64,000 bases of DNA, taken from the NCBI RefSeq assembly GCF_964204645.1, contig NC_134025.1, positions 16,839,101 through 16,903,100 of the forward strand, read 5' to 3'. Shown in pieces: positions 34,195 to 54,220 of the stretch (position 1 is the first letter of the stretch; every line of letters starts with the position of its first letter). The stretch comes from Tubulanus polymorphus. Taxonomy: Eukaryota > Animalia > Nemertea. The position numbers and the translations under genes were made by a program. The notes under the pieces are model-generated. The model saw only the letters and a program-made list of their open reading frames with translations, was not told the origin of the DNA and made no database searches.

Positions 34195-34870
34195 AGGCTT
34201 GTCGACAAGCAACGCGACGCCTACCGACTCCTACCGACGCAACTGAGCAACTGCAATCGCAGCCCAGCTTATAATGTCGACTGCGCTCCGATTCGCAGCA
34301 ACTGAGGCCGACTAGCGGGATATGAGATCCTCCCAGTTGCTTCCCTGCTTATGTCGGTTGCGATTACTAGCAACTGCAACAGCTCAAATGGTCACGTGAT
34401 AAGCATTTTGAGAATAAATTCGAATTATTAGGAAATATATTTCTATTAGAAAAGCTATTTCTTTGAGACTTTGATTTTTCTGATTCTGTTTTGAATACAA
34501 CGTGCTAGCGACATCATATAACGATGGCCGCTCACACCATAATTCTCCCAATTTCGTTTCTAGATCTTCGGTCCAGTCCTCTGCCGTGCTGAAGGTTTGG
34601 TTTACGTTTTGAACTACTTGAATTTGAAAGTTTATGACTAATTACGAATGACGCTAACTAGCGGTGATAATTTGTACTATGTATACGCGGTCTCTCATTG
34701 GCTGGAACCCCTGCGCTCAGTTCCGTCGCGTCGCAGATGAGCTTATGTCGGCTGCGATCGAAAGCAACTGCCCGCCTTCCGTAGGCCGGAGTAGAACATG
34801 GGCAACTAGCCGGATACGGCTGGCGACGAGTCGGTAGGCGTCGCGTTGCCGTCGCAAGCCGGCTTATGTC
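34195..34870. mobile_element. Left part of a MITE split by Polinton copy B (right part 52802-52920)
   Basis: gtcgacaagcaacgcgacgcctaccgac at ~34201 is inverted at ~52880-52908; repeated GCTTATGTCG motifs. Confidence 0.75.
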
Positions 34871-35468
34871 AGTAATAGGGGTAATGGGCTTTCATACCAA
34901 AGGTCGAACGGTCGAGCTCATTAAAAAACAAAACATTAAAAGTAATTTAAAACTATAATATATTTTCATAACCGTGTGCATTTTATATTAAAACTAAATA
35001 TTTATTCTAAGATATCAATAATTTAAAAAGCATATTATATTAAATCAATTGGTCGCTCCACTTCGCTACCGCTCCGCTCCGCGACCAATTGATTTATTTA
35101 CAATACACAAATTCATATAATCAAATATATTCAAATAATAATAATTATTCTATTATTCAACTGAAATACACACGGTTATGCAAATATATTATAGTTTTAA
35201 ATTACTTTTAATATTTGTTATTAATGAACTCGACCATTCAACCTTTGATATGAAAGCCCATTACCCCTATTACTCTTAAAATATTCATATAAATGAATAA
35301 CATTTAAATCATTGAACTTCTAAAATCAATTTTAATAAAAAATTTAGTATTAAAATGGAAGCAAATAAGTACTACTGTCCAACATGTAATATCAATATAG
35401 ATAAATCCCAAAAAGCAAGACACAATAAAACTAAAACACATTTAGAGAATAAATTGAAACTAGAATAT
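34871..35468 (+). repeat. Left terminal inverted repeat (first 404 bp form an imperfect hairpin)
   Basis: Reverse complement of 52204-52801 with about six mismatches counted by eye; includes the first 38 codons of the Zn-finger ORF. Confidence 0.95.
35330..35357 (+). promoter_or_regulatory. Palindromic start motif TTTTAATA-N10-TATTAAAA(TG)
   Basis: Recurs at 39399-39425, 46237-46262, the right TIR and 55648-55675 (-). Confidence 0.55.
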
Positions 35469-35894
35469 GAAGATGATATATTAGAAACTAAATTAGATGA
35501 ATTAAAGAATGAAAAAGAAGCATACAAATGTGATACATGTAATCAATCATTTAGTGATAAAAGATATTATAATGAACATTTAAAATCTAAAAGTCATATT
35601 AGAAATATGAATAATGATATTTTAGGAGAAGATTATTTTGATAATGATAACGATAAGAAACATAAGACAATTAAAAGAATAAGAAATAAATTAAACAATA
35701 AAAGACCATACATGGAAGATGTAAGAAAATATATTAATTTATTGGATAATAAAAAAGATATTGAGATAACCGAAGCATTTAAAAGTGATATTGGTCCAGC
35801 AGCTATCGAGTTTAAATTTCATAAAGGAAAAACATTAGAAGAAAATAAAAAAACATTTAGAAAATATGAAAGAAATAATAAAAATAATAACTGA
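35355..35894 (+). CDS. C2H2-type zinc-finger protein; probably the frameshift-separated N-terminus of pPolB
   Basis: YCPTC..HNKTKTH and YKCDTC..HLKSKSH; overlaps polB, with an A7 run at 35847-35853 joining the frames. Confidence 0.75.
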   Translation: MEANKYYCPTCNINIDKSQKARHNKTKTHLENKLKLEYEDDILETKLDELKNEKEAYKCDTCNQSFSDKRYYNEHLKSKSHIRNMNNDILGEDYFDNDNDKKHKTIKRIRNKLNNKRPYMEDVRKYINLLDNKKDIEITEAFKSDIGPAAIEFKFHKGKTLEENKKTFRKYERNNKNNN

Positions 35895-38800
35895 TGTTGA
35901 ATATCCTAAAATTAGTATATCAGTTAAAGTAAAGTTTATAAAATCTGAAGATAAACCAATATACAATATAAATTCTCATTCACAACATATTATATCAAAA
36001 CAACATATAGATGACAAATTAGATAAATGTTATAATGAAGTAAAAACTAAAATAGAAGAGAAATATTTTGAAGGATCTGGTTTAATATTTGATGAAATAA
36101 TATTTATGACTTTACATGTTTATAACACAAAATATAATAAGTTAACTAAATCAAAACCAATTGATGAAAATAATGTATCATATTATAAAGAACCAGATAT
36201 TGAAGCATCGAGTTATATTAAACTACCATTTAAAACTAATGCTGTTATAAATGTACAAAATGAAGATGATAAATGTTTTCTATGGGCTATAATAAGTTGT
36301 TTACACCCAACAGAAGATATTACACATAGTTTTAGATTAACTCATTATAAACCATTTGAAAATAATTATAAGATAGATAAGTATCCTGTTAGAATTAAAA
36401 ACATCCCAAAGATAGAAAGAGATAATAATATAAAGATAAATGTATCTGATTTAATCAAATTACCAAATACAAAAGGTAACAATATAAAACATTATACATT
36501 AGAACCTTTATACCTATCAAAAGATTATGATTCAAACGGTGTTATAGATATATTATATTATGAGAATCATTATATGTGGATTAAACAAATAGATTTATTT
36601 TTTAAATCAGAAAATGATCACCATAAAATATATCTTTGTAGAAAATGTTTACATAGATTCAGTAATGAAAGTACATTATTAAATCATAAACATTTATGTG
36701 AAAATCATGATTATTGTAAATTAGTTTTACCAAATGAAAAGGATAAAATATTAGAATTCAAAAAATATGATTACAAAAATAAAGTTCCATTTGTAATATA
36801 TGGAGGTTTTGAATCATTAAATAAAGAATTAACTGATCAAGATAGAAAAGAAATATATTATAAAAGAAAGAAATTAAATTCTAATGAAAATGATTTTTCA
36901 GATGAACCACCAAAAACAAATACTATTAAAAAGATTCATCAATCAGCTGCAGCTTTCGGGTTATATATTAAATCTGATTATCCAGAACTAATTGAAAGTG
37001 AATATTATCATTACAGAAATGAAAATGTTATCAATCATTTTTGTGACTTATTAATTGAATATGAAATAAGATTTAGTAAATTATATAATACAAATATAGA
37101 AATTATAATGACAGAAGAAGATAAAGAAGAATTTGCGTTTGCAGGTAAATGTTATTATTGTGAAAAGATATTTAATTATAAAGATAAAAAAGTAAGAGAC
37201 CATGATCATTTGAATGGAAAGTTTAGAGGCGGCGCACATGAGAATTGTAACTTACAAGCTAAGAAAATTAACTTTGTACCAGTTATATTTCATAATCTAT
37301 CAGGATACGATGCACATTTATTCATCAAACAGTTATGCCATAAAATAGAAGAAATCAATAATGAAATAGAAATATTAAATTCAAATAGATCAAAAGATAA
37401 AATACCAACTTATAAATTTAGAATGTTAGCTAAAACATCTGAGAATTATATATCATTCCAATTTGGTTGCCTAAGATTTATAGATTCATATAGATTTTTA
37501 AATAGTTCATTAGATAACTTATCAAAATCATTAGTTGATGATGAATTAAAAATATTAAAGCAACATTACCCAAATAATGATGATTTTCAATTAATGAGAT
37601 ATAAAGGAGCAATTCCATATTCATTTTATAAATCACATAATGATTTCAATATGACTGAATTATTGAAAGAACAATTCTATGATGAATTAAAAAATGAATA
37701 TGTTAAAGATGAAGTCTATAATAGAACATTGAATATTTGGAATCATTTCAAAATAGAAAATCATGGGCAATTAGTAGATTTATATTTAAAATCAGATGTA
37801 TTATTATTAACCGATATATTCGAAAGGTTTAGAGATGTTAACCTAAAATATTTCAACATTGATCCTTGTCATTGTTATTCATCACCAGGATTAACATGGG
37901 ATTGTGGATTAAAATTTACAAATATAAAAATGGATTCGTTAACAAATATAGATCAATTACTATTATTTGAAAAATCTATAAGAGGAGGAGTTTCAGGTGT
38001 ATTAGGTGATAGATATTTCAATGTAAATGATAACCCTGGATATAAGTTATTATATATAGATGCAAATAATTTGTATGGTTGGGCAATGATGGAACCACAA
38101 CCTTATGGAGTATTTGAATTAACTGAAGTTTTACAGAATGAAAATAATGATAAATTTGATTGGAAGAAAAGAATCCTAGATATTGCAGATGATTCAGATA
38201 CTGGTTACTTCTTTGTTGTAGATTTAGAATATCCTGAACATATTAAATTTAAATCTAGAAATCTAGCATACTGCCCCGAACATAAAACTGTAACTCATGA
38301 AGAATTATCAAATTATCAAAAAAGAATTAAACCCGAAAATCATATTCATACAGAAAAGTTAATGGTAACTCAAGAAGATAAATATAATTATATAGTACAT
38401 TATAGAATGTTAAAGTTTTATCTAAAACAAGGAATGGTTCTAAAAAAAGTACATAGATATATTTCATTTAGTCAATCTAAGTGGTTAGAAAAATATATAG
38501 ATTTTAACATCAAACAGAGAACTAAAGCTAAAACTGATTTCGAAAAAGATTTCTATAAGTTAATGAATAATGCATTCTATGGTAAGACTTGTGAAAACAT
38601 TAGAAATAGAAATGATATTGAGTTAGTCAGTAATGGTAAAAGAATTAGACACTTACAATCATATCCTAAGTTCATTGGTAACAGAATATTTGATGAAAAT
38701 TTAGCCGCAGTTAAGATGAGAAGAACATCAATGAAATTTAATAAACCAATCTATGTTGGCGCTTCAGTTTTAGAATTATCAAAATTACTAATGTATGAAT

Positions 38801-39393
38801 TCTATTATAATATATTACAACCACTTTTTGGAGAAAAACATATAGAAATATTATATTTTGATACCGATTCTTACATATTAAAGATAAAAACTGATAACAT
38901 AACTGATGATTTAAAAACATTAAAACATCATTTTGATTTCAGTAATTATCCTAAAGATCATGACTTGTTTAGCAATGATAATAAAAAAGTTCCCGGTAAA
39001 TTCAAAGATGAATTAGGTGGTGAAGAAATGATTGAATTCATAGGTATTCGATCTAAAATGTATTCATATAAAACTAAAGAACATGAAGCTAAAAAGTTAA
39101 AAGGAATAACCAAAAGTGAAGTAGAAAAGAATATTCATTTCAAAGATTACATCAATTGTATATTCAATGAAGAAGTTAGAAAACATAAGATGAGATGTTT
39201 AAGATCTGAAGATCATGAAATGTTTATTGAAGAAATTGAAAAGATAAGTCTAAACCCATTTGATGATAAAAGATATATTCTGGATGATGGAATTCATACA
39301 GTTGCTTATGGTTGCAATTTAGATGAATACTTAAAATTTAAAAGAGAAGAAACAAAAGAGAACGAGATAACGAAAAGAATTCTAACGTGTTAA
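35866..39393 (+). CDS. polB: Protein-primed family B DNA polymerase with embedded endonuclease VII-like domain
   Basis: FHNLSGYD (ExoII), YLKSDV (ExoIII), YIDANNLYG, KLMNNAFYGK, YFDTDS; CYYC..RDHDHLNGKFRGGAHENCNL. Confidence 0.97.
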   Translation: MKEIIKIITDVEYPKISISVKVKFIKSEDKPIYNINSHSQHIISKQHIDDKLDKCYNEVKTKIEEKYFEGSGLIFDEIIFMTLHVYNTKYNKLTKSKPIDENNVSYYKEPDIEASSYIKLPFKTNAVINVQNEDDKCFLWAIISCLHPTEDITHSFRLTHYKPFENNYKIDKYPVRIKNIPKIERDNNIKINVSDLIKLPNTKGNNIKHYTLEPLYLSKDYDSNGVIDILYYENHYMWIKQIDLFFKSENDHHKIYLCRKCLHRFSNESTLLNHKHLCENHDYCKLVLPNEKDKILEFKKYDYKNKVPFVIYGGFESLNKELTDQDRKEIYYKRKKLNSNENDFSDEPPKTNTIKKIHQSAAAFGLYIKSDYPELIESEYYHYRNENVINHFCDLLIEYEIRFSKLYNTNIEIIMTEEDKEEFAFAGKCYYCEKIFNYKDKKVRDHDHLNGKFRGGAHENCNLQAKKINFVPVIFHNLSGYDAHLFIKQLCHKIEEINNEIEILNSNRSKDKIPTYKFRMLAKTSENYISFQFGCLRFIDSYRFLNSSLDNLSKSLVDDELKILKQHYPNNDDFQLMRYKGAIPYSFYKSHNDFNMTELLKEQFYDELKNEYVKDEVYNRTLNIWNHFKIENHGQLVDLYLKSDVLLLTDIFERFRDVNLKYFNIDPCHCYSSPGLTWDCGLKFTNIKMDSLTNIDQLLLFEKSIRGGVSGVLGDRYFNVNDNPGYKLLYIDANNLYGWAMMEPQPYGVFELTEVLQNENNDKFDWKKRILDIADDSDTGYFFVVDLEYPEHIKFKSRNLAYCPEHKTVTHEELSNYQKRIKPENHIHTEKLMVTQEDKYNYIVHYRMLKFYLKQGMVLKKVHRYISFSQSKWLEKYIDFNIKQRTKAKTDFEKDFYKLMNNAFYGKTCENIRNRNDIELVSNGKRIRHLQSYPKFIGNRIFDENLAAVKMRRTSMKFNKPIYVGASVLELSKLLMYEFYYNILQPLFGEKHIEILYFDTDSYILKIKTDNITDDLKTLKHHFDFSNYPKDHDLFSNDNKKVPGKFKDELGGEEMIEFIGIRSKMYSYKTKEHEAKKLKGITKSEVEKNIHFKDYINCIFNEEVRKHKMRCLRSEDHEMFIEEIEKISLNPFDDKRYILDDGIHTVAYGCNLDEYLKFKREETKENEITKRILTC

Positions 39394-39422
39394 TCAAATT
39401 TTAATAAAAATATGTTATTAAA

Positions 39423-39776
39423 ATGGAGAGTAAACAAGCAAACAGTGAGAACAACAAATTATTTCTAGATAGAATTAAAGATATCACAAATGTAAAATCT
39501 GCAGATTATAAATTCAAAAAGTTAACAGAATTAACAATCCATATGAAATATCTAATTACAAATATTGATACAGTTACTAATAACTATGGAGATAAATTAG
39601 TTATTCACTTAGAATATGAAGGATTAAAAGGAAATACATATAAATTCAGAACATATTTACCGGATAGATTTCATAGATTATCAAGTGAAGATCTAGAAGA
39701 ATTATGTTCTGGTGATTTCTATTTCGTATACAAAGGTAAGAATGAAAAAGGGCACCATGAAATAGATTTCGAATAA
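39423..39776 (+). CDS. Small conserved protein next to polB (possible OB-fold ssDNA-binding protein)
   Basis: Homologue at 7377-7704; beta-rich pattern with YG and LP motifs; function inferred only. Confidence 0.6.
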   Translation: MESKQANSENNKLFLDRIKDITNVKSADYKFKKLTELTIHMKYLITNIDTVTNNYGDKLVIHLEYEGLKGNTYKFRTYLPDRFHRLSSEDLEELCSGDFYFVYKGKNEKGHHEIDFE

Positions 39777-39793
39777 GAAAATATGTAAAATAA

Positions 39794-40552
39794 ATGGCGG
39801 AATTAAAAGAATACAGAATATTTGTTGATTCTAGAAGGCTTACAAATTATAAATCTCATAATTTACTAGTTCAATTAGATAGAGAATTCAAGAATTGTGT
39901 AGATTTGAAATTAGTCAATATAAGTTTATGTAATTCTTTTTACAATATATCGAATAAAACTATTGAACATAATACTTTTTTAATTCATATTAGAAATGTA
40001 AATAAATGGTTTCATCTAATTTTAAAACCAGGATTATATAATTTAGAAACATTAGCTCAAGAAATCAATCGTAGAGCACGGTTGAAAATTAGAAAAGATG
40101 ATAAATTTTTAATAAGATTTTTAAAAAGTGATAGCTCAAATAAAATTAAAATAAAGGTATTTGATGAAAGTCAACATGCATTTATAGTAAAAAAACCACT
40201 AGCTAAATTGCTAGGAATTGCACCAGATGTTGTTACAGTAAACGTAGAAGGCATTTCAAATATAATACCTTTTACACACTTTTATATTTATTGCAATTTA
40301 ATCGATCCTACAAAAACATTCGAAGCAACTAAAGATATAACTTGTAATTCTGGTTTACAAAACATTTTACCATTGAAGAATGTTAAAGAATTTGGAACGC
40401 AAATAAATTATAATTTAACAGAATGTGATTTCAAACCTTGTATTCCACATTTCAATAATTTCAAATTAGAAATAAGAAATCATAATGGTTATTTAATTGA
40501 TTTGAATAACTTTCCTGTAATATATGAATTAGTTATAGGATGTAGAGAGTAA
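39794..40552 (+). CDS. Minor capsid protein (penton, single jelly-roll)
   Basis: IFVDS, NSFYNIS, PGLYN, FYIYCNLI, EIRNHNGYLIDL pattern and size typical of Polinton pentons. Confidence 0.8.
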   Translation: MAELKEYRIFVDSRRLTNYKSHNLLVQLDREFKNCVDLKLVNISLCNSFYNISNKTIEHNTFLIHIRNVNKWFHLILKPGLYNLETLAQEINRRARLKIRKDDKFLIRFLKSDSSNKIKIKVFDESQHAFIVKKPLAKLLGIAPDVVTVNVEGISNIIPFTHFYIYCNLIDPTKTFEATKDITCNSGLQNILPLKNVKEFGTQINYNLTECDFKPCIPHFNNFKLEIRNHNGYLIDLNNFPVIYELVIGCRE

Positions 40553-40568
40553 TTTTTTCATTATATAA

Positions 40569-40925
40569 ATGAATATAACTGTTGGGCCGAGCATATGTTT
40601 TGGATTTGATTTTAAACGTGAGAAAGAAATGAAATTTAACGTTACTGATGTAATTACACATATTAAAAATATTGCATTTTCTAATGAAACAACATTTGAG
40701 TATGAAACAACAATAGATAAAGAAACTTTTAATGTAGAAAAGATTACTAATTTAATTAGAGAATCTTTAAGATTTTATGAATTAGATGAAGATTTTATCA
40801 TCGATGATATTAAAAAAATAATAATTGAAATATATACAAATGAAACTAGTAATGAAATAAATGTTGAATTAATCATCACTAAGATAACTAAATATTTTGA
40901 TGATAGTAATTTCTTTGATAAATAA
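40569..40925 (+). CDS. Hypothetical acidic protein
   Basis: Open frame in a tightly packed gene array with T6-N7-TAAATG start. Confidence 0.7.
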   Translation: MNITVGPSICFGFDFKREKEMKFNVTDVITHIKNIAFSNETTFEYETTIDKETFNVEKITNLIRESLRFYELDEDFIIDDIKKIIIEIYTNETSNEINVELIITKITKYFDDSNFFDK

Positions 40926-41147
40926 ATGAGTGATAATAAGTGGATAATAACTGGATTATATAATGGCGCATTACTATCAGTTGGAACTGTTGGTTATTCA
41001 ATGGTATTAAAAAAAGTATTTAAAATGGGAAGTGTTAATGTTGATAGATTTGATATAAATGATATCTTAAAATTAACATTAGCAGTTACTTTATCTAATT
41101 TAACTATTGATTATTTGGAAAAACAAAAATATATTCCTCCCATATAA
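40926..41147 (+). CDS. Small hydrophobic/amphipathic protein
   Basis: TAAATG start abutting the upstream stop; GLYNGALLSVGTVGYSMVL and ILKLTLAVTLSNL segments. Confidence 0.75.
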   Translation: MSDNKWIITGLYNGALLSVGTVGYSMVLKKVFKMGSVNVDRFDINDILKLTLAVTLSNLTIDYLEKQKYIPPI

Positions 41148-41173
41148 ATGCATAATTTTTTTTTGCTAAATAA

Positions 41174-41596
41174 ATGGCTTCTGCAATTATAACTATTATA
41201 GGATCGGCAATTGTTAACGCTTTAGCATTTACTGGTGGCGGTTATTTATTTAAGCATATTGATAAAAATAGTTCATTAGGAGAACAAAGAAGACATAACT
41301 TAGCATTAGAGAAATACAATAAAGCAGCAGAAGAATATAGAGAAAAAAGACAAAACTATATGGATTATATTAACAAGGAATTATATGATCAGAAGATTTC
41401 ACATAGAGATTTTCAATCAGTTGATGATGCAATGAGTTTATATAACGCGGTAACCAATAAAGAAAAATTACATCTATACAAACCTAAATTATCAGATTAT
41501 TATACCCCAAGTAATGAACAGAAGAAATATGAAATAATATGGATTTTAGGTGGAACTGTTATTGTTATATTTGTTGCTTATAAGTTTACTAATTAA
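41174..41596 (+). CDS. Putative membrane-active virion protein
   Basis: Hydrophobic N-terminus, EQRRHNLALE coiled segment, C-terminal TM IIWILGGTVIVIFVAY. Confidence 0.75.
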   Translation: MASAIITIIGSAIVNALAFTGGGYLFKHIDKNSSLGEQRRHNLALEKYNKAAEEYREKRQNYMDYINKELYDQKISHRDFQSVDDAMSLYNAVTNKEKLHLYKPKLSDYYTPSNEQKKYEIIWILGGTVIVIFVAYKFTN

Positions 41597-41621
41597 TTAT
41601 TTATTATTTTTTGTTAAATAA

Positions 41622-42083
41622 ATGGATGATAAAGTTGATAATATTGATATTATTCCTCATGATATAAATAAAACTAAATTAAAAATATATTTAGAAAAAC
41701 AAATATTAGAATTTGAAAGTGACTTAAAAGTAAAAAAGAAAAAATATCTAAAAAGTAAAATTATATATTATTTGATTATAAATGGTTCGGTTACAATTAG
41801 TTCTGTAATAACATTTCTAGCAATATTCAGTCCATTAACACCTTTAGCTATATCAATTGGTGTGTTAGGATTAAGTTCAAGTGTTTTAACTGGTATAAGT
41901 TCGAAATTGAATATTAAAAGTAATAAAGAAAAAATTAAAACTAATATAAAAGAAATTAATAAATTAAAGAATACACTAGATTATATAATAAGTTTAAATG
42001 GTCATATAACAGTTGAAGAACAAGATAAATTATTAAAAGAATTAATAAATTATCAATTTTTTAATTATATAAATGGCAGATAG
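41622..42083 (+). CDS. Two-TM membrane protein flanked by coiled coils
   Basis: IIYYLIINGSVTISSVITFLAIF and LAISIGVLGLSSSVLTGI. Confidence 0.75.
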   Translation: MDDKVDNIDIIPHDINKTKLKIYLEKQILEFESDLKVKKKKYLKSKIIYYLIINGSVTISSVITFLAIFSPLTPLAISIGVLGLSSSVLTGISSKLNIKSNKEKIKTNIKEINKLKNTLDYIISLNGHITVEEQDKLLKELINYQFFNYINGR

Positions 42084-43458
42084 TTTTCCAAAAGATTTCC
42101 AATATAATAAATCAATTAAATATAATATTCCAGCAATAGATTTTAATAAAGATATTACATATAGAAATGAAGTTTTAGATTCATTAACTAATTTAGAAAT
42201 TTATGTTACTGAAACTAATAATTTTAATGCAAAGATGGAAAATATATTTCATGTATATTTAATTAATTTTAAAAAATTGAAAGATGAAAAACAATGGTTA
42301 TTAAAATCTAACATGAAGTATTGGCAGAACCAATTAAATTTTGCTGTTTATTGTGCAACAACAGGATGTGGAATAAGTTGGAATGATCATTTGAATAATT
42401 CTAAATATAAACTAATTCAAAGTTTATTTAGATTTCATACATACTTTCAAATCAGAATAATATTAAATGAATTAGAGTGCGCTTTACCAGGATCTAGGTA
42501 TTTTAAAGAATTAGATAATAATATTAATTTATCAAAGTTTTATAAAATTTGTAATGAATTTAATATAGATATAAATAATTCTGATTTTAGAACAAAAATT
42601 GTAACAATAAGATCACTTTCTTGCCCCAAAAAGATTGCAGAATATTGTGCACTTCCCATACCATCTAATAGTTTGTATAATATCTATAGTCATAAATTAG
42701 GTTATGGTAAAATAGAAACTAAGGATTTAGAAACATTAAATTTTAATAAATTACCGACATTTTATGATAATTTAAAACAAGAAAACAATAATGGTTGGGT
42801 TTATTTCATTTTAGGAAATAATGAAGGTTTTACAAAATCAGGTATACAAAGAATAAATCAATCTATTAGAACTTATTTGATATGTATTCTAGGTGCACAA
42901 GTTGAAACAAGATCACCGATAATTGGAAATTTAAATACATCATTCGATACACAAAAACAATTTAAAGTTTTATTTGAAGATTCCATTCATAATGATAAAA
43001 ATAGATCGATTCCAGAAAACATTATAAGATATCAAAATTATTTAGATAAATCTCATGTAAGACTAAATTATTGTATAGGCCCTAATCTATTAATTATTTC
43101 TAATGATTTAGTATTGAAGATGGGAAATATAATTGGTTATAATAATCTAATTAAAACTGCAACAATAAATAATTCATTTGGATTAAATGATATAAATAAA
43201 AAGATTATTACCGCCCCAAAATTAATGGAAGGTGAAAAAAATAAAAAACATATTCAATCAACAGAAACTAAAACTAAGAATATTAAATTAAATAATGATT
43301 CTAAACCGGATTATAATACATCAGAAAATATTAAAACTGATAATATTCAACATGATATAATTAAAACTGATAATGATAATAAATTACATGAAAATACTAA
43401 ATTAGCTATAACTTGTATAGGAATTGTAATCGGAGGAATATTATATTTTAAATTTTAA
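42073..43458 (+). CDS. Conserved 461-aa hypothetical protein with C-terminal TM anchor
   Basis: Long open frame; WQNQLNFAVYCATTGCGIS motif; LAITCIGIVIGGILYF tail; homologue in copy A. Confidence 0.85.
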   Translation: MADSFPKDFQYNKSIKYNIPAIDFNKDITYRNEVLDSLTNLEIYVTETNNFNAKMENIFHVYLINFKKLKDEKQWLLKSNMKYWQNQLNFAVYCATTGCGISWNDHLNNSKYKLIQSLFRFHTYFQIRIILNELECALPGSRYFKELDNNINLSKFYKICNEFNIDINNSDFRTKIVTIRSLSCPKKIAEYCALPIPSNSLYNIYSHKLGYGKIETKDLETLNFNKLPTFYDNLKQENNNGWVYFILGNNEGFTKSGIQRINQSIRTYLICILGAQVETRSPIIGNLNTSFDTQKQFKVLFEDSIHNDKNRSIPENIIRYQNYLDKSHVRLNYCIGPNLLIISNDLVLKMGNIIGYNNLIKTATINNSFGLNDINKKIITAPKLMEGEKNKKHIQSTETKTKNIKLNNDSKPDYNTSENIKTDNIQHDIIKTDNDNKLHENTKLAITCIGIVIGGILYFKF

Positions 43459-43474
43459 GTTTTTTATTATGTAA

Positions 43475-44875
43475 ATGGCAGAAGGTGGGGAAGATATTCC
43501 ATTGAATCCTTTTGGTGATGAACCCGGTATAAGTGATGAACCACAACCTGATTTTAATGAAACTAATATTGATAATGATGATGAATCAGCATATAATTCT
43601 AATTTAGCAGATAGTGGTTCTAAAGTCCCATCAACAGAAGAAAATGATAGAAGAATTAGATCGAGAATACCTACTGAAAATTTAGACCCAGGTTTAGAAA
43701 GAGAAAATTTAGAAAATTATGAATTTATGTATGAATTTCAACATGTATTTAAAGAATCTGGATATAATATAAATGATAGAGGCGCTAGAGTTTTAGTACA
43801 AGAATTAAAATCTTTAGATGGTGAATATTATTATCATTTGAAAGATGATTATTATATTGATATCTCTTATAAAAAACAAAACAAAATATTAGCAGAATCA
43901 ACTTTGCTTAAGTCTGACTCATTACTATCTAGAATTAAAATAATAAGAAATGGTAATGAAATAGAAGATGTAACACAAGAAGAAATTATTAAAAATGAAA
44001 GAGTATTTAAACAAAGAATTAATGAATTATTTGAAACAATCAAAGATAATCCAGAAACAGAAACAACTTCTGAACAGAATAAAACTTCCAAAACTAGTAA
44101 ACTTAAATCAAATAAAGTTCCAATTGAAAAACTTTTACCGAATGGATTACTTGATGCAACAGATCAAGAATTAGAAGATTTAGATATATTTTCTGATAAA
44201 GCAATTAGAGAGATTATTAGTATAAGAAATGCATCTGATAAAATTGCGCATGATAAAAGTATAAGAGATTTTAAAATTAGAACTTTAGAAAAAGAATTAA
44301 CTGATAAAAATAAAGAAATAGAACAATTAAAGTCTGATTTAGATCATCAAGTAATTGATGAAATAGAATATAGGCAAAAAGAATTACGTTTAGAAAAAGA
44401 AAAAGATGATTTAGAATATAACATAGAATTACAAAAAGAAGAAATTAAATTATTATTAAAATCATATGATTATAATATTAATAGATTAAAAGATGTTTTT
44501 AAAAGATATCTAATAAAACCAGATTCTAAAATATCATTGAAAGATAGAATAAAATTATTATTTAAGTTTGAAGGAATAACAATTCTTTCAATTCTAACAG
44601 CTGTAACTATGTTATTTACAACAATAGGTTTAGCAATATCAAATGCTTTGAAATCTACTCCTACTCCCAATAAACCGGATAAACCCCCGAATGACAATAA
44701 TTCTATACAAGATAAAGTTAAGGATGGTTTAAAGAAATTAGCAAAATATTTATGGGAACTATCTAAAAAATCTGCTGCAGCATTGCCAGGAGTTATTGCA
44801 TCAATTGTTGGTTTTATATTGAAATCTGCTGGGAATATTCTTAACTTTGCTGCTGAACATATTATTTTATTTTAA
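43475..44875 (+). CDS. Acidic/coiled-coil protein with C-terminal TM helices (last helix cut by a frameshift)
   Basis: Homologue at 572-2007 continues LITVVSAIIFGLV; 1-nt indel near 44873. Confidence 0.8.
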   Translation: MAEGGEDIPLNPFGDEPGISDEPQPDFNETNIDNDDESAYNSNLADSGSKVPSTEENDRRIRSRIPTENLDPGLERENLENYEFMYEFQHVFKESGYNINDRGARVLVQELKSLDGEYYYHLKDDYYIDISYKKQNKILAESTLLKSDSLLSRIKIIRNGNEIEDVTQEEIIKNERVFKQRINELFETIKDNPETETTSEQNKTSKTSKLKSNKVPIEKLLPNGLLDATDQELEDLDIFSDKAIREIISIRNASDKIAHDKSIRDFKIRTLEKELTDKNKEIEQLKSDLDHQVIDEIEYRQKELRLEKEKDDLEYNIELQKEEIKLLLKSYDYNINRLKDVFKRYLIKPDSKISLKDRIKLLFKFEGITILSILTAVTMLFTTIGLAISNALKSTPTPNKPDKPPNDNNSIQDKVKDGLKKLAKYLWELSKKSAAALPGVIASIVGFILKSAGNILNFAAEHIILF

Positions 44876-44979
44876 AATTACAGTTGTAAGTGCTATTATT
44901 TTTGGGTTAGTAAATATGATATCAAAAAATATCAAGTAACCATGATTAAAAATAAATAATTAATTTCTTTGTTAAATAA

Positions 44980-46227
44980 ATGAGTGGGAGTTATATCAAT
45001 CCTTCTAAGAATCATAGAATATCTAATGCTATTAAAGCAGAAAGATCACATCAGATAATTACTAATAACCCTTCTAATATTAATCCTGGTGAAACTTTAT
45101 ATGTTAGAATTCATAGATTAACACAAAATACTTTTTATGTTCCAAATAGTATTTATTTATCAGCCGATATAAAAGTAACTGGCCATGATAACAATTATGT
45201 TGTTGATAATGTTGAAAGATATTTGATTAAAAAATTAACTATAAAGATTGGTCCGGAAACAGTTTTCTCATTAGATGATTATAATTTATTTATGCATTAT
45301 AAAGATTAATGGTTAACTAAAGAAAATAGAAATAATATGATATTTCAGGGTATTCAATCGGAAAACCATAATAAATTAAGATCAGGAGCTAATGACGCAA
45401 TAGTAACTCGTGCCACAGATAATTTGATAAAAAAGATTTATGGAAGCAAATATAAAATTCCATTAGACTTTGAATTGATAAATAATAATGCACCTTTATA
45501 TAAATACGCAATTCAAGAAGACGTTATATTCGAAATAACATTTGCTCCTGTAAATGAAATTGTATTATCTAGCGTTGTTAAAGATATGAGTTATGAATTA
45601 TCGAATATATGTTTAGAATATGATACAGTAACTGATGAAAATATTGCTAACACAATTCAAACTCAATACAATCAAGGATTTTCATTATTATATGATTATA
45701 TTGATAAATTTAAAACCGTAACTATTAATGCAAATGATGAAATTATTAATGAGAATATTAACTTCCCAAGAAGATCTATTAAAGGTATATTAATATTTTT
45801 TACCATTGCAACATATACTAATGGTGCAATAAATGTTGATAATTATTATAATCCTGAAATAACAAAAGTAAAAATAACTATCGAAGGAATAGCAAATAAA
45901 ATATTTTGTCAAGGAATGAGAATGATTGATCAATGGCCAGAAATTAGAAAACATTTTATGAATGAAAATGTGAAATCATCTGAAAATTGTAATATTAATC
46001 AAATTGATTATTATACCGGTAATAAATATGCATTATGGTTAGATTTTAAAACAACAGAGGATAATTCATTACATGGTTCTGGAAAAAAACTACAAAACAC
46101 TAAAGATGGAATACAATTATTCATGACAAAGAAAAAGGGAAGCCTAAATTTCAAAATGCATATTTATATTATATCTGACGCGCAATTAAATATTGTAAAT
46201 TCACAATTAGATAGTGTTATGTATTAA
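44980..46227 (+). pseudogene. Major capsid protein (double jelly-roll), single nonsense mutation
   Basis: 416-codon frame with TAA at 45307-45309 where copy A has TTA (Leu); beta-rich; size and context fit the MCP. Confidence 0.85.
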
Positions 46228-46259
46228 AATTTTAACTTTAATAAAAAATCTTATATTAA

Positions 46260-47099
46260 ATGGAAGGAGGTAAAGTATATAAACATATTCCATACATCGA
46301 TACACATGAAAATAATGATGGTTTATATTATGTAATACCTTGTAATATAGCTTTGATATTTGATCCTATTTTCAAAATTTATAAAACTAAACTAATAGAA
46401 ATCGATAATAATAAAAGTGGTGTTGTTGATAATTTAAGTAATGTAATTGATAATAATGTAATACCTACTACAGTAATACCTACTACAGTAATACCTACTA
46501 CATCTAATAATGTAATACCTACTACATATAATAATGCAATAATGTTAAATGTTAGTGAAAATAGAAATTATTGTGATTATTGTAAAGGTGAATTTTCAAA
46601 CGCTCCATCAAATTGGAATAAACATATGAATACAAAGGTACATATTACTAATGTTATAGAACGTGTTGGTTTAAGAGAATTTATAGAACACCCATTTAGA
46701 TATGTTACAAAGTTTGTTTCAAATAAAAAAGTAAATGGTAAAGAATTATATGAAGATTTTTTATTAGCAACACCTAATAAAGATGAATTAGATTTAACTG
46801 ATGCTAATGAAATATTAGGATCAAACACTGTAAATGAAATATTAGGAGCAAAGACTAATAAAGATTCTATGAAACATAAAGTAGAAAATAATGATAACTT
46901 TGATTGGATGAATAAGCATAACAATGAAACAACTATTGATGATTCGGTAAAAAAGGTGAAAAATAAGTATAAAAATAATAAAGAATTTGAAGAAGAAAAT
47001 TCGGTAGAGAATTTGAAAAAATTGATGGGGTATGATAGTGAATTGGAGAGTGATGATGAAAGTGATTCAGAAAGTAATTATCTAACACTCAAAAAGTAA
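46260..47099 (+). CDS. Zinc-finger protein with VIPTT repeats and acidic tail
   Basis: YCDYC..NWNKHMNTKVH; repeated gtaatacctacta units; absent at this position in copy A. Confidence 0.75.
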   Translation: MEGGKVYKHIPYIDTHENNDGLYYVIPCNIALIFDPIFKIYKTKLIEIDNNKSGVVDNLSNVIDNNVIPTTVIPTTVIPTTSNNVIPTTYNNAIMLNVSENRNYCDYCKGEFSNAPSNWNKHMNTKVHITNVIERVGLREFIEHPFRYVTKFVSNKKVNGKELYEDFLLATPNKDELDLTDANEILGSNTVNEILGAKTNKDSMKHKVENNDNFDWMNKHNNETTIDDSVKKVKNKYKNNKEFEEENSVENLKKLMGYDSELESDDESDSESNYLTLKK

Positions 47100-47158
47100 T
47101 AAAGGTTGAAAATTGTATAAAATAATAGTAAATAAAAAAGGGGTTTTTAAGTATTTAA

Positions 47159-47238
47159 GGTATCTAATAGGGTATCAGGTATTAGGGTATCAGGTATTAG
47201 GGTATCTAATGGGGTATCAGGTATTAGGGTATCTAATA
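47159..47238. repeat. 16-bp-type tandem repeat (gggtatcaggtatta) between convergent gene blocks
   Basis: Direct read. Confidence 0.85.
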
Positions 47239-47254
47239 CATAGTCATATAAATT

Positions 47255-47866
47255 TTATTTTATAAATTTATATTCATAGGGAAATTGTAGTCTCAGTAAT
47301 AATTTTGAACCTTTATTATTCTTTAATTTATTCATATATTCATCGTGTAATTCAGTAGGTATAATTTGATTTTCTTCCAATGATTGTTGCATAGATTTTT
47401 TATCTTTGTTATAAAATAAAACTAGAAATCTTATATCCTCCCTAAAGTCTTAAACAATTGAATTATATTTTTGATTTAAAACCCATGTTGTTATCCCAAA
47501 ATGTCTCCCAGAGAAAGCTAAATAACATAACTCACTTTCTCTCACTTTTGAATCATGTAAATTAGCGCAATCATCTATAATGAATAATGTATTTGATCCT
47601 TTATAAGTATCAATTGCTATTTTTATACAATTATCTAAATTTTCTTTTACTGTTTTAGGGTCTAATATAATAAACTTTTTCTTCTTAACTATATCTCTAT
47701 TATATGTTTTATTCATTTCATAAGTAGGACAGAATAATATTATATTATCAAAATGATTCTTATAAATAGTTTCTAACAAATCTAATATGAAATGTGTTTT
47801 ACCACAGTTTGTTACTCCAGTAACTAACATATTATGCGGTTCAAATATAAATAAATCTTTATTCAT
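47255..47866 (-). pseudogene. Packaging ATPase with one nonsense mutation
   Basis: GVTNCGKT, FIIDD, GRH; TAA at 47450-47452 replaces Lys; frame continues DFREDIRFL..QFPYEYKFIK. Confidence 0.9.
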
Positions 47867-48971
47867 TTATTCTTTTAATTTTACTAGATAAAATCCATTC
47901 ATTAAATTTATCATCGTATCCTTTATATTTCACCAAAGAATACTTTTTTCCTTTAAGAGTTTTTGTTTTCAATACTTTTTCTATTTTGTATTCTATTTCA
48001 TCTGGATTTGGTACAAGTGATAATTCTTGTTCATAGAAATAACCTAATATTTCTTCATCTTTTAGATCTTCTAATTTATAAACAAAAGGTTTAGTTAATA
48101 TTATCTTTTTAATCTTGAATATTTCTTCTGTAAAATTTGGGGTATAACCTTTATAAAATGTTTTTCGATATTTAGATATTCTTACGTGTTGTCCTATTTT
48201 AAATTTAGGTTCACCGAAATCGTGTGTAACAAACGCTCCATATAAATTATTCCAAACTATTTCCGAATTATCTTCTTTTCTAGCTTGTATAGGTTTCATA
48301 TTTATAGAACTATGTTTAGAATTATCATAACCTTTCACTAAATCATCTAACACATCGATATATTTATATGTTTCATTAGCAGTAAAGTATTTCCACATTC
48401 TAGTTTTCAATGTTTTATTAAATCTTTCTATAATAGATGCTTTTTTATCTGAGTGTGTTGAAAAATAATCTACATCGTTATCAGATAATAGTTTTTTGAA
48501 ATGTTTGTTATAAAATTCCTTACCTTCATCAAATTGTATCTAATCTGGAATAGCTTCTTTAAATATAGATTTAAAAGCATTTGTAACTTCTATTCCAGTT
48601 TTATTTTTGATTGGAATTGACCATGCGTATCTACTGAATATGTCTATAACATTCAGTATCCAGAAATATCCTTTGTTGTATTCCTCTAAGTTCTTCATAT
48701 CAATTAAATCTGCTTGCCATTGTTGATCGATATATGAAACCATAACTTTTCTTGTTAAATAAGTTTTATCCATTTTCTTGTGGATTTGATATGTTGGTTG
48801 ATTTTGTAACCATGATTTTAATTCGCTATATTTTATACCACCATGTGGGCGCCATACGGCACCATCACCATTATCAGATTTAATTTTATTCCATAATTCT
48901 GAAACGTTAGAATATGATACTTCACTCTCTGGGTTATAATAAAAATCTCTTAAATATTGTTCTTTTTTCAT
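47859..48971 (-). pseudogene. int: rve integrase with chromodomain, one nonsense mutation
   Basis: QWQADLIDM, IQFDEGKEF, ERFNKTLK, chromodomain; in-frame TAG at 48540-48542. Confidence 0.92.
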
Positions 48972-48977
48972 CTTATT

Positions 48978-49346
48978 TTAATCCATTAATAATAATTTAG
49001 ATTTAGTTTCAATGGCTTTATGATTTGACTTATTTTCTGGTATGATAGGTTTATTGTCATTGGAATCATCTTTATCATCAGATTTGAATTTTGATTTATA
49101 TATTACACCGGATAATATAATAACTGTTACTAATCCAATTGTAATATATAATTTATAATTACTTCCAGCATTAGAAGAATCAGATGGATTATTATTTGAA
49201 TCAATATCAGATAAAGTCTGTGATTCATTTATATCAGTTAATTTCTTTTTCTTAGCTTTTTTTAATTCTGAAGATCTTTTACCTAATTCTCTTGCCCATT
49301 TAATTTGTTTCTCGGATCTAGCCTTTTTCTTAACGCCATCACTCAT
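48978..49346 (-). CDS. Small basic protein with one TM helix
   Basis: Homologue of 5895-6251; LYITIGLVTVIILSGVIY. Confidence 0.8.
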   Translation of the reverse strand: MSDGVKKKARSEKQIKWARELGKRSSELKKAKKKKLTDINESQTLSDIDSNNNPSDSSNAGSNYKLYITIGLVTVIILSGVIYKSKFKSDDKDDSNDNKPIIPENKSNHKAIETKSKLLLMD

Positions 49347-49371
49347 TTATTTTAGTTAATTTTTGTTCTGA

Positions 49372-49941
49372 TTAATTTTTTGTTTCGACGTTTGGTTGTA
49401 GTACATCTGTTTCATTCTTACCTGATTTATATTCCATAGACTTGATATTCGAAAATGTAATGACACCAGTAGAAATTAATGTCATAACCGATCCTAATTG
49501 AAATGAAGCATAACCAACCCATTTTTGTAATTCAGTCATAACTAAATAGTCATTTTTCAAATCACTATATAATTTATTTTCATCATCAATTGGCATTAAC
49601 TGGTTACATAATTTTGAATAACATTTGACAATACCATCTGAAATAGAATCATTTATTCTAGCTAATCTTGCTTCTTCATAAATCTTAAAATATTTTATTA
49701 CTTTATCTGGTTTCATAGCATCTAATTCTTGAAAAGTAATGATTCTATTTAAAAACTCCTTAGTTTTTCCACCGGCAATCAATAGTTCTAGATGATGCTT
49801 ACAATATAAATAGTATTCATAATCAATATTACAATTAACTTGAGCACAATTAGTTACAACTGTATCGTTATTATCACTTATACCCAAATCATCTAATGTC
49901 TTTTCAATATCAATACTATTCTTATTAGATTTCTTTGACAT
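49372..49941 (-). CDS. Conserved Polinton hypothetical protein
   Basis: Homologue of 5357-5962. Confidence 0.85.
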   Translation of the reverse strand: MSKKSNKNSIDIEKTLDDLGISDNNDTVVTNCAQVNCNIDYEYYLYCKHHLELLIAGGKTKEFLNRIITFQELDAMKPDKVIKYFKIYEEARLARINDSISDGIVKCYSKLCNQLMPIDDENKLYSDLKNDYLVMTELQKWVGYASFQLGSVMTLISTGVITFSNIKSMEYKSGKNETDVLQPNVETKN

Positions 49942-50353
49942 TTATATTAGAGAAAAAAAGCAAAAAAATATTATAAGTATTCTTCAAATGATACTAGCTA
50001 GTTAAAGCTAAAGAATTCTAGTATTGACTACTGATACTAGCTATTTGAATTTAAAGAATTTCTATTTGAATCTATTCAAAATATAAAGTATTCTCTTTTG
50101 AAAAGAAAATATTAGAAATATAATAGAATTCACTAGCTAGTTGAAGTTATTGTTTTTTTATTATATTTTATTTGAATTCTATTTGATATCTCACTACTTT
50201 TGTTTATCTATTAGGAGCAGTAATTATAACCGTCCAGATAAGTCATTTCGGATCCTTGATATCAAATTCCTCAACGTATTGTTCATTATTTGGATCATTG
50301 TTCCATTGATCAATAAATTTCTTTGCCTTTGTTAACTGTTCTAAAGATAACTG

Positions 50354-50917
50354 TTAATCTAGTTTATTAGATTTAATTATGTTTTCCTTCTTTTCTAAAG
50401 GTCTTAAATTCTTCCAATTCCAAATAAGTTTTTTATTGTATTCATCATTCATGTTAAATTTAGATATTGGTAACACGTGATCAATATGGTAATAATCCCC
50501 ATAATTATCTATATTCATTTTATCATCGAATTGAAATATAATCCATGATTTGAGAAATTCATCTGAACAACCCAATAAATTAGATAGTGTTTCTGAATGT
50601 GTTTCTTTGTTGAATAATTGTGTTAATCTAGATCTTAAGCATTGTTTCAATCTAAAATTAAGATCTGTTTGATATCTTTCTCTCATATATTCTGCCATAT
50701 AATAATTATAATGTTCTATATTATCTTCTCGATATTGTTTAGTATATAGTTTAGTGCAAGTTTTACAGCAATATTGAAAACCATCTTTGCTAATCTTACG
50801 CTTACTAAATTCTGTTAATGATTTATCTAATTCACACTTAGAACACTTCTTGTAATATATATTTATAACACCAGTATTATTTGTAATATTGATAATTTGT
50901 GGTTGTTCTGGTTCCAT
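50354..50917 (-). CDS. HNH endonuclease with N-terminal zinc ribbon
   Basis: KKCSKC..CKTC; YHIDHVLPIS..NLRPL..ENIIKSNK. Confidence 0.85.
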   Translation of the reverse strand: MEPEQPQIINITNNTGVINIYYKKCSKCELDKSLTEFSKRKISKDGFQYCCKTCTKLYTKQYREDNIEHYNYYMAEYMRERYQTDLNFRLKQCLRSRLTQLFNKETHSETLSNLLGCSDEFLKSWIIFQFDDKMNIDNYGDYYHIDHVLPISKFNMNDEYNKKLIWNWKNLRPLEKKENIIKSNKLD

Positions 50918-52065: not shown

Positions 52066-52317
52066 TCAAATAGAATCATGTTCTAGTATAAACATCGGAT
52101 CCTTGATGTCAAATTCCTCAACGTATTGTTCATTATTTGGATCATTATTCCATAATTCAATAAATTTCTTTGCCTTTGTTAACTGTTCTGAATATAACTG
52201 TAAATATTCAAGTTTCAATTTATTCTCTAAATGTGTTTTAGTTTTATTGTGTCTTGCTTTTTGGGATTTATCTATATTGATATTACATGTTGGACAGTAG
52301 TACTTATTTGCTTCCAT
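52066..52317 (-). CDS. Short zinc-finger ORF starting in the right TIR
   Basis: First 38 aa identical to 35355-35894, then a different C-terminus. Confidence 0.6.
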   Translation of the reverse strand: MEANKYYCPTCNINIDKSQKARHNKTKTHLENKLKLEYLQLYSEQLTKAKKFIELWNNDPNNEQYVEEFDIKDPMFILEHDSI

Positions 52318-52801
52318 TTTAATACTAAATTTTTTATTAAAATTGATTTTAGAAGTTCAATGATTTAAATGTTATTCATTCATATGAATATTTTAAGAGT
52401 AATAGGGGTAATGGGCTTTCATATCAAAGGTTGAATGGTCGAGTTCATTAATAACAAATATTAAAAGTAATTTAAAACTATAATATATTTGCATAACCGT
52501 GTGTATTTCAGTTGAATAATAGAATAATTATTATTATTTGAATATATTTGATTATATGAATTTGTGTATTGTAAATAAATAAATTGGTCGCGGAGCGGAG
52601 CGGTTGCGAAGTGGAGCGACCAATTGATTTAATACAATATGCTTTTTAAATTATTGATATCTTAGAATAAATATTTAGTTTTAATATAAAATGCACACGG
52701 TTATGAAAATATATTATAGTTTTAAATTACTTTTAATGTTTTGTTTTTGAATGAGCTCGACCGTTCGACCTTTGGTATGAAAGCCCATTACCCCTATTAC
52801 T
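52204..52801 (-). repeat. Right terminal inverted repeat (hairpin 52398-52801)
   Basis: Reverse complement of 34871-35468. Confidence 0.95.
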
Positions 52802-53247
52802 TATGTCGAACCGATTGACGAGCAACTGGCGGCCTCTCGTAGGCCGCTAGTTGCCGCTAATCGGCGATAAACCCAGTTGCGTCGGTAGGCGTCGCGTTGC
52901 TTGTCGACATACGCCAGCCTTAAGAGGACGTCAATGGGACGTCAAGATGGAATTAAGTCTGGATTACGTCACTTTGATGCCGTATGGAGGACGTCAAGAA
53001 ATTAACGTAATTTTGACGAAATAAAAATACGTCTTAAATGATGTCGAGAAAACTTTCATTTTTTACTCAAAATCCAACGTCTGGTTTTGCTGTTTTAAGG
53101 ACGTAATGAAAACGTAAAAATGCCTAGTGGGACTGAATTGCTGATGAAATTTTGAATCTAAAACAATGATATTTAATGTTATTGATTGAACCATTTACGC
53201 CGAGAGGTGCGGATCTGCACTTTTACTGAAATCCTGCGTATGGCCCA

Positions 53248-54182: not shown

Positions 54183-54220
54183 TTTTATAGTCAAAATATA
54201 TGAAATTAAAAGATGCTGTT

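Follow-up and report, generated by a model that had tools for sequence, protein, structure and literature searches.

The Polinton described here, from the nemertean Tubulanus polymorphus, belongs to a lineage in which no adenain-type maturation protease is detectable and in which a set of seven genes for hydrophobic proteins is kept beside the capsid genes. Protease-less Polintons are already known; for the membrane module, we found no published proposal in the literature. A lipid-containing particle is likely because the lack of a detectable protease coincides with a conserved hydrophobic set and with a start motif common to this set and the capsid genes. Judging from the genes alone, we lean towards a DJR capsid that would enclose an internal lipid membrane, with assembly taking place in the cytoplasm and perhaps aided by a giant virus. 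The lipid-containing virion proposed in the initial annotation is thus the best-supported of the readings, because the set is conserved, moves together with the capsid block and has a start motif in common with the capsid genes; homology to tectivirus membrane proteins and a replacement of protease maturation were not supported. Positions below refer to the window, the whole stretch of 64,000 nt that was analyzed, which contains the following features.

34865..34870, unstranded: left target-site duplication (TSD), TATGTC
34871..35468, +: left terminal inverted repeat (TIR), 598 nt
35355..35894, +: C2H2 zinc-finger ORF, 179 aa, starting inside the TIR, without TAA-ATG start
35866..39393, +: pPolB (PF03175, E 1.6e-15)
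39423..39776, +: 117-aa ORF with no assigned function in the replication block, without TAA-ATG start
39794..40552, +: penton/minor capsid protein, 252 aa, labelled by position, size and conservation
40569..40925, +: o118, not hydrophobic, restricted to close relatives
40926..41147, +: o73, of a conserved family, with two helices that are amphipathic or weakly hydrophobic
41174..41596, +: o140, charged helix flanked by a hydrophobic segment at either terminus
41622..42083, +: o153, two-TM hairpin, SLATT-like (PF18142, E 0.007, below cut-off)
42073..43458, +: o461, tail-anchored; helical core of no known fold, flexible linker, C-terminal TM
43475..44875, +: o466, predicted coiled coil, then TM, Pro-rich loop, amphipathic helix and more hydrophobic helices
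44980..46227, +: MCP gene, one internal stop at codon 110 (PF16903, E 0.012)
46260..47099, +: o279, variable zinc-finger/low-complexity ORF, a slot whose content varies from copy to copy
47255..47866, -: A32-like packaging ATPase, stop at codon 139 (PF04665, E 9.6e-11)
47859..48971, -: RVE integrase with chromodomain, stop at codon 144
48978..49346, -: o122, basic N-terminus and single TM, conserved family
49372..49941, -: o189, all-helical, moderately hydrophobic C-terminal hairpin
50354..50917, -: HNH/endonuclease VII-like ORF, 187 aa (phrog_1035, E 2.7e-17)
52204..52801, -: right TIR
52802..52807, unstranded: right TSD, TATGTC

Long TIRs and a TSD of 5–8 bp are expected of Polintons/Mavericks, and the element (34871–52801) ends in two 598-nt TIRs that are 99% complementary, with a 6-bp TSD on each side. 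It shares with these elements a protein-primed PolB with a vOTU domain, an A32-like packaging ATPase, a probable MCP, a putative penton and a chromodomain integrase, whose rve (E 5.8e-5) and chromodomain (E 4e-5) matches were both slightly under the cut-off because the gene is split. It differs from them in that no adenain was detected and in its fixed seven-gene hydrophobic set. The MCP was recognized by a weak PF16903 match and by one homologue that bears the name 'Major capsid protein', and its frame is open over 415 aa in most sister copies; the putative penton gene was found at 59 of 80 related loci. The family comprises at least 132 copies. The initial annotation had described a complete TSD-bounded element, which is true of the ends but not of the genes, since in this decayed member of a high-copy Polinton family MCP, integrase, ATPase and o466 carry premature stops. 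Here, o466 is ∼18 residues shorter than its homologues, in which the missing end forms one further hydrophobic helix.

Seven ORFs of 73, 140, 153, 461, 466, 122 and 189 aa had been reported to carry hydrophobic or TM segments, five of them between penton and MCP. All seven are present at these sizes, and the first five indeed sit between penton and MCP. With a hydropathy scale as the sole TM method (19-residue window, Kyte–Doolittle (KD) ≥1.6), segments were detected in o140, o153, o461, o466 and o122, while o73 and o189 were weak, with maxima of 1.16 and 1.34. Their relatives gave a similar picture: the threshold was reached by only 3 of 18 members of the o73 family and by 12 of 19 of the o189 family, often via an additional N-terminal helix, as compared to 15/15 relatives of o140 (two segments in 11), 21/21 of o153 together with its orthologous cluster C5 (link E 1.8e-5) and 11/14 of o122 (family link E 1.9e-5). 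Two or more segments were found in 21/21 relatives of o466, and the tail helix of o461 in 107 of 120 homologues. Such segments were rare in control proteins (MCP 0/17, penton 2/36, ATPase 1/21, integrase 0/8). None of the seven proteins significantly matched known virion membrane proteins, and the PHROGs, PDB and BFVD matches listed included no homologue of a tectivirus membrane protein, so that a tectivirus-like membrane found no backing in homology.

All seven hydrophobic families recurred across 80 related metagenome contigs, in shuffled gene orders and at a median pairwise identity of 21–39%. Among the 19 contigs of ≥7 kb, which all contain o461 by construction, o466 and MCP were each present in 19, penton and ATPase in 18, o189 in 17, o153-like genes in 16, o122-like genes in 15, and o73 and o140 in 13 each. 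The replicase differs among these relatives (pPolB or SF1 helicase), whereas the hydrophobic set is constant. Within the T. polymorphus genome, the penton-to-MCP block of subfamilies A and B is mostly 85–95% identical at the nucleotide level, compared with ∼71–78% for pPolB, integrase and ATPase. A third family (C), with an MCP that is ∼42% identical, has o461, o466, o140, o153-like, o122-like and o189 genes and no Ulp1 match. The hydrophobic set travels with the capsid block.

The module also has a common start signal. TAA-ATG marks 13 of the 17 ORF starts, as against 41 of the remaining 729 ATGs (p 7e-13), and it stands at the starts of all 12 capsid-module genes versus none of four other genes. 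The motif recurred at 11 of the 13 starts checked in subfamily B, including that of the integrase, which does not have it in subfamily A, and at 10 of 11 starts in a related contig (L022). In family C, TATAG was located near 7 of 10 starts, and most of the distant relatives do not retain TAA-ATG (e.g. o461 10/59, MCP 2/17). Nucleocytoviricota promoters abut the ATG, and the 12 module genes may likewise be turned on jointly as late genes. VLTF3 is absent from this element; it was detected in subfamily B (E 3.7e-6, over the cut-off) and in family C (E 0.0015, under the cut-off). Furthermore, one copy contains a decayed poxvirus A11-like gene (Pox_A11, E 8.7e-10). VLTF3 and this captured gene hint at an encounter with a large DNA virus, and the indications as a whole favour a cytoplasmic programme in the style of Nucleocytoviricota over one like that of tectiviruses. 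A relationship of o189 itself to A11-like membrane-assembly proteins is a weak lead: A11 ranked second in Foldseek with weak scores (E 0.53, TM 0.28), a comparison of the o189 profile with the A11 stretch (13/2000 shuffles) was equalled by a penton decoy, and the Pox_A11 HMM did not match the o189 genes.

The initial annotation had found no adenain-type ORF, and all searches agreed with this. Pfam revealed no adenain/Ulp1 gene among 19 ORFs of the element, nor did a six-frame, stop-read-through Ulp1-clan HMM search and a catalytic-motif scan of the element, run without a Polinton-protease positive control. A genome scan with PF02902 yielded 10 matches, and of the seven inspected none was inside an element of this Polinton family; PF00770 had no match anywhere. 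No adenain/Ulp1 was found in three Polinton families of this genome, in the sister copies examined or in the sequenced spans of the 80 related contigs, which are partial (none shown complete end to end), and no adenain-like fold was seen among the uncharacterized ORFs. The label 'protease-less' is therefore best narrowed to no maturation protease detected, as pPolB keeps an N-terminal vOTU, identified by motif and not by fold, whose Cys137 and His235 are conserved in sisters and two distant relatives. That a membrane 'replaces' protease maturation, as had been proposed, was not supported: the accessible portions of two reports describe PLVs and Tlr1 as missing the protease and report no membrane (PMC4642659, PMC5499653), so protease loss and a membrane need not be linked, and large DNA viruses have both.

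Could the hydrophobic proteins serve a naked capsid, as non-structural or internal membrane-active factors? They might then be exit pores, endosome-lytic peptides similar to adenovirus protein VI, or factory-remodelling or defence effectors, in line with the similarity of o153 to SLATT two-TM effectors and the amphipathic character of o73, o140 and the o466 tail. Members of this virus group also frequently carry holin-like and SLATT genes, which others interpret as serving lysis or defence (10.64898/2026.10.13.758929), and Adintoviruses have membrane-active PLA2X, GasderminX and cupiennin-like genes, with no envelope proposed for them. However, joint retention of seven genes over deep divergence despite replicase swaps would be unusual for lysis or defence cargo, clear anchor helices are seen in o461, o466 and o122, and the hydrophobic genes have the same start motif as MCP, penton and ATPase; we therefore regard this explanation as unlikely. 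Alternatively, maturation cleavage might persist via a hidden or borrowed protease, with the membrane set as an addition. Candidates would be the pPolB vOTU with its retained Cys and His, a host or helper protease, given that large DNA viruses, with which contact is suggested, encode a related one, or o461, were it a Cys/His enzyme with a novel fold. In 115 o461 sequences, His122 (115), Cys94 (111), Cys99 (112) and Cys160 (107) are nearly invariant, making an enzyme or metal site possible. Adenain/Ulp1 proteases have a papain-like alpha/beta fold with His-Asp/Glu-Gln-Cys; the model of all 461 residues is mostly helical, with no protease among the fold matches listed. Overall, we consider persisting cleavage quite improbable.

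A capsid that budded to gain an outer envelope, o461 and o466 serving in attachment and fusion, would resemble nematode Mavericks, which have a gene for a gB-like fusogen and for which an envelope has been proposed, and the predicted coiled coil followed by hydrophobic helices in o466 would suit such a role. That class III fusogen, however, has both a signal peptide and an extensive ectodomain, whereas o461 has a signal-peptide-like start in only 1 of 120 homologues and no sequon excess, and the N-terminus of o466 is acidic and non-hydrophobic, which would place the large domains of both on the cytosolic side. No match to a fusogen fold was obtained (for o461, none gB-like), and a fibre-like gene in 13 of the 80 contigs fits an exposed capsid vertex. 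We consider an outer envelope very improbable. The initial annotation had seen in o461 a candidate entry factor with a C-terminal anchor; the tail anchor was confirmed, and a classical entry glycoprotein was not supported.

For the internal-membrane virion, the following course can be envisaged. Module transcription would probably be cytoplasmic and may depend on a polymerase supplied by a large DNA virus in the same cell, for which the start motif, VLTF3 in two sister families and the A11-like gene captured by one copy are indirect clues. The hydrophobic proteins would insert into an ER-derived membrane from the cytosolic side, where o189 may open or shape the membrane, o153, o140, o73 and o122 may link it to capsid, vertex and DNA, and the packaging ATPase would fill the particle. 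During entry, o466 and o461 could act in membrane penetration or attachment. If assembly and entry were membrane-based as in tectiviruses, capsid cleavage would be unnecessary. These separate roles are guesses from anatomy.

By gene content, the element is probably a member of the variable Polintoviricetes group 2 in Bellas and Sommaruga 2026 (10.64898/2026.06.19.733378). In that group, as in some relatives here, an SF1 helicase can stand in place of the replicase; the genome maps of the paper key SLATT and VLTF3, and it also records animal elements that group with Aquintoviruses. An OTU at the PolB N-terminus is shared with Adintovirus/group 1 Polintons, but their adenain (vUlp1) was not detected, and Pfam detected no phospholipase or gasdermin-like gene in the element. 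Among the Polintons in the available part of Krupovic et al. 2014 (Table S1), Polinton-N1/N1A/N1B_NV, Polinton1_SM and Polinton-1_DGr likewise have MCP, penton and ATPase without a protease; these are presence/absence entries that describe no membrane module. PLVs and Tlr1, in the source portions available, resemble it in a morphogenetic module without maturation protease and in the occurrence of fibre-like, SLATT and VLTF3 genes, and some PLVs need a giant virus for transcription (Gezel-14T), but their hosts are mostly protists, a pPolB and RVE pair is usually missing and no internal membrane is reported.

In tectiviruses (PRD1, Bam35), the internal membrane holds numerous small membrane proteins. 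They resemble this element in the packaging ATPase, in a linear genome with protein-primed replication, in the DJR capsid predicted here and in that no maturation protease is found, but have bacterial hosts and no integrase, and their membrane proteins showed no detected sequence or fold homology to those described here. With Nucleocytoviricota, including poxviruses with VMAPs such as A11, the sister families share VLTF3; however, those viruses keep the protease and mostly have their own RNA polymerase, and o189 alone resembles one of their proteins, weakly. The poxvirus-type membrane is ER-derived and made in the cytoplasm (PMC6013026), and Mriyaviruses, small relatives, possess a two-TM gene as well as a homologue of an envelope protein (PMC11253617). 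Nematode Mavericks with the MFUS-1 fusogen are likewise Polintons of animals for which particles containing lipid have been proposed, but with one signal-peptide glycoprotein and a retained protease instead of seven signal-less hydrophobic proteins and no protease found.

To our knowledge, Polinton virions have never been seen, and they are usually imagined as capsids that are naked and matured by a protease. The kind of internal membrane that bacterial tectiviruses have recurs in giant viruses, and a eukaryotic Polinton-sized virus with such a membrane, absent from the literature compared, would fill a gap. A broader and more doubtful proposal is that a widespread marine-invertebrate Polinton lineage has an internal-membrane virion and its own seven-gene module, including a remote A11 homologue, and is a virophage of poxvirus-like animal giant viruses. 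If so, the lineage would form a living bridge from membrane virions of the tectivirus type to the way in which Nucleocytoviricota make their membranes, and o461 would be a virion protein with a fold not seen before. Under the main reading, the search for particles would change to lipid-containing, solvent-sensitive ones, possibly produced only under giant-virus infection, and o461, o466 and o189 are named targets for structural and functional work. The lineage is large, with 2032 MCP clusters at 90% and 1431 o189 clusters at 50%.

The Polinton has intact ends around damaged genes.

Window 34871–52801: Polinton element of 17,931 bp, with 598-nt inverted repeats and a TATGTC duplication at both ends

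Pfam and PHROGs searches of its ORFs identified a protein-primed PolB (pPolB), a chromodomain integrase, an A32 ATPase, MCP and an HNH nuclease, and a penton is probably also encoded. The initial annotation had called the element complete, which holds for the terminal inverted repeats (TIRs) and the duplication but not for the coding sequence: MCP, integrase and ATPase each contain one internal stop, and o466 (hydrophobic ORFs are named by length in amino acids) ends prematurely. At least 132 MCP copies with 92–100% identity, out of 1669 candidates, are present in the genome (268 Mb), whose host is probably an animal, judging from the flanking genes. The element probably belongs to the variable group 2 of Polintons (10.64898/2026.06.19.733378, sections 5–7). 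Family copies nest and cluster, and several sisters are rearranged. Window 1–7800 is the right part of a copy of sister subfamily B, with the same capsid block, integrase and ATPase reversed in orientation, and proteins outside the block ∼70–85% identical. More family-related fragments lie at 53600–55900 and 62350–64000; these comprise zinc-finger ORFs, a 24-bp tandem array, a TIR-like end (55775–55875) and an inverted pPolB end (62429–64000).

Seven ORFs had been described as hydrophobic or membrane-spanning. By hydropathy, five (o140, o153, o461, o466 and o122) indeed carry TM-like segments, whereas those of o73 and o189 are weak. Alignment of o461 yielded 392 metagenome relatives, and ORF clustering of the best 80 of these 392 recovered all seven hydrophobic families, in varied gene orders and with a replicase that is either pPolB or an SF1 helicase. 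At L041:9967–13404, L053:9276–12458 and L061:8794–11034, an SF1 helicase fusion stands in place of pPolB in relatives that share this capsid and membrane set. Among the 19 contigs of ≥7 kb, o466 and MCP were present in 19, penton and ATPase in 18, o189 in 17, o153-like ORFs in 16, o122-like ORFs in 15, and o73 and o140 in 13 each, with o461 present by construction and the profiles derived from the same contigs; most absences appear to be contig ends. Median pairwise identity was 21–39% for the hydrophobic families versus 44% for MCP. Hydrophobic segments were retained in relatives of o466 (21/21), o140 (15/15), o153 with cluster C5 (21/21) and o122 (11/14), and in those of o189 (12/19), o461 (41/65, shortened ORFs included) and o73 (3/18), compared with 0/17 for MCP, 2/36 for penton, 1/21 for ATPase and 0/8 for integrase.

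Between subfamily B and the element's own subfamily A, the penton-to-MCP block is mostly 85–95% identical in nucleotides, against ∼71–78% for pPolB, integrase and ATPase. The GC-richer family C, with an MCP ∼42% identical, retains at least six of the seven hydrophobic families (o73 was not seen at a 90-aa cut) and also carries a fibre-like gene, VLTF3 and Bcl-2. Elysia marginata is the named source of one MCP homologue, and the lineage may range more widely among marine invertebrates. The Bcl-2 family protein (L120:8215–8583; PF00452, E 5e-14) adjoins the family C MCP. The fibre-like gene, with repeated AATKxYVD motifs, lies beside penton (L047:1978–2937 and cluster C14); found in 13/80 contigs and family C, it is absent from subfamilies A and B. 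Subfamily B pPolB has a ∼1.07 kb in-frame insertion near the polymerase C-terminus (L013:2672–3740, L019:2532–3597) that to us looks intein-like, and a close relative encodes a deoxynucleoside kinase (L022:10340–10981; PF01712, E 1.7e-31).

TAA-ATG, usually as ATAAATG, is found at the starts of 13 of the element's 17 ORFs, compared with 41 of the 729 other ATGs (p 7e-13). Each of the 12 capsid, packaging and hydrophobic genes carries it, and ZnF179, pPolB, o117 and integrase do not; at o73, the TAA is the stop codon of the upstream ORF. It recurs in subfamily B (11 of the 13 starts checked, that of integrase among them) and in contig L022 (10 of 11). In family C, TATAG lies near 7/10 starts, and TAA-ATG is not evident in most distant relatives at the start positions called here. 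Poxviruses use TAAAT(G) as late initiator and asfarviruses TATA, whereas Kozak contexts do not favour T at −3. VLTF3-like late transcription factor genes occur in subfamily B (L016:5407–5880) and family C (L114:7127–7678) and are absent from the window's element; VLTF3 in coral Polintons was already reported (PMC11131425, phylogeny section). One copy holds a poxvirus-like gene between ATPase and o279, its sole occurrence in the genome.

L125:9170–9500 plus L126:1–470: decayed Pox_A11 homologue (PF05061, E 8.7e-10; match at genome contig G000:C7:9752677–9752961)

The finding points to capture from a poxvirus-like virus that infected this host. The start motif, VLTF3 in B and C and this homologue together suggest that the module may be expressed late, in the cytoplasm and possibly driven by a helper.

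For o189, whose relatives number 1431 at the 50% level and whose model is helical (pLDDT 84), Foldseek matches were not significant; five named large-DNA-virus proteins stood among the top ten rows (E 0.43–1.4; Feldmannia virus, Medusavirus, Solivirus, Pithovirus and, at rank 2, an entomopoxvirus 'viral membrane formation protein', which we take to be A11). A11 is one of five poxvirus membrane-assembly proteins (PMC6013026). The signal in a direct profile test of o189 against A11 was not specific, and the modelled likeness is a lead only.

The initial annotation had proposed o461 as a C-terminally anchored entry factor. The anchor is supported, with a tail helix in 107 of 120 homologues at a 17-residue window (86/120 at 19; 187 homologues overall) followed by a median of 1 residue; with a signal-peptide-like start in 1/120, a classical entry glycoprotein is not supported. 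Given the near-terminal helix, the rarity of signal peptides and no visible enrichment of glycosylation sequons, o461 is predicted to be a tail-anchored protein whose domain faces the cytosol. The fusogen of nematode Mavericks differs in having a signal peptide (10.1101/2022.07.12.499685; 10.1101/2023.08.22.554363, section 8). The confident, mostly helical model of o461 (pLDDT 80.8) found no match in BFVD, PDB or 48,161 chains. His122 is invariant and Cys94, Cys99 and Cys160 nearly so; these residues could form a metal site or disulfides, or belong to a new enzyme. Judged by anatomy, o466 is the stronger candidate for penetrating a membrane: its C-terminal hydrophobic end, the most conserved region of its family, comprises a TM segment, a Pro-rich loop, an amphipathic helix and more hydrophobic helices.

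The hydrophobic genes behave like core morphogenesis genes, with fixed content, capsid-block linkage and a common start motif. These features are best explained by an internal-membrane virion, a reading we consider somewhat more likely than not. A naked capsid, accompanied by proteins for pore formation, lysis or defence, is a rather unlikely reading that has parallels in earlier work: SLATT and holin-like genes were read as lysis/defence (10.64898/2026.10.13.758929, section 10), and adintovirus membrane-active genes were described without a membrane virion (PMC8502044, section 3.4; PMC11071296). An envelope gained by budding seems the least likely. In the accessible text of the literature, including PMC11253617, PMC11296320 and 10.1101/2022.07.28.501842, we found no suggestion that Polinton particles contain an internal membrane; figures and bioRxiv supplements could map this lineage.

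Hidden or borrowed proteolysis is in our estimate distinctly improbable. Our searches agree with the earlier observation that the element has no recognisable adenain-type gene. Pfam found no protease among its 19 ORFs. These are tightly packed, and the one stretch able to house a protease-sized gene is the last 1.3 kb ahead of the right TIR; there, the window and two sisters contain short repeats and no frame >∼120 codons. Of the 10 PF02902 matches in the genome, 7 were retrieved; each is a gene of the host or of another element, and none belongs to this Polinton family. Nor did a divergent or sister-copy protease emerge: an Ulp1 HMM built from five of these was applied to all six frames, stops being read as X, and no match fell below E 1.5 in the element, window 1–8000, ten sister regions and 80 related contigs, or below E 0.5 in 15 further loci, negatives that are uncalibrated against any Polinton adenain (PF00770 had no match anywhere). 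'Protease-less' applies to adenain/Ulp1 but not to pPolB, which has a vOTU motif with Cys137 and His235; such a domain was proposed to free the terminal protein (PMC11161782). The idea of a membrane replacing the maturation protease is not supported here. Polintons with MCP, penton and ATPase but no protease were already on record in a survey that found a protease in 74% of 72 (PMC4028283, section 4, Table S1); PLVs (Polinton-like viruses) and Tlr1 are also without a maturation protease (PMC4642659, PMC5499653). Elsewhere in the genome, intron-less Ulp1-family proteases lie amid long ORFs of no assigned function (L108:2066–9567, L109:5749–6387) and may represent a further endogenous DNA virus or a transposon.
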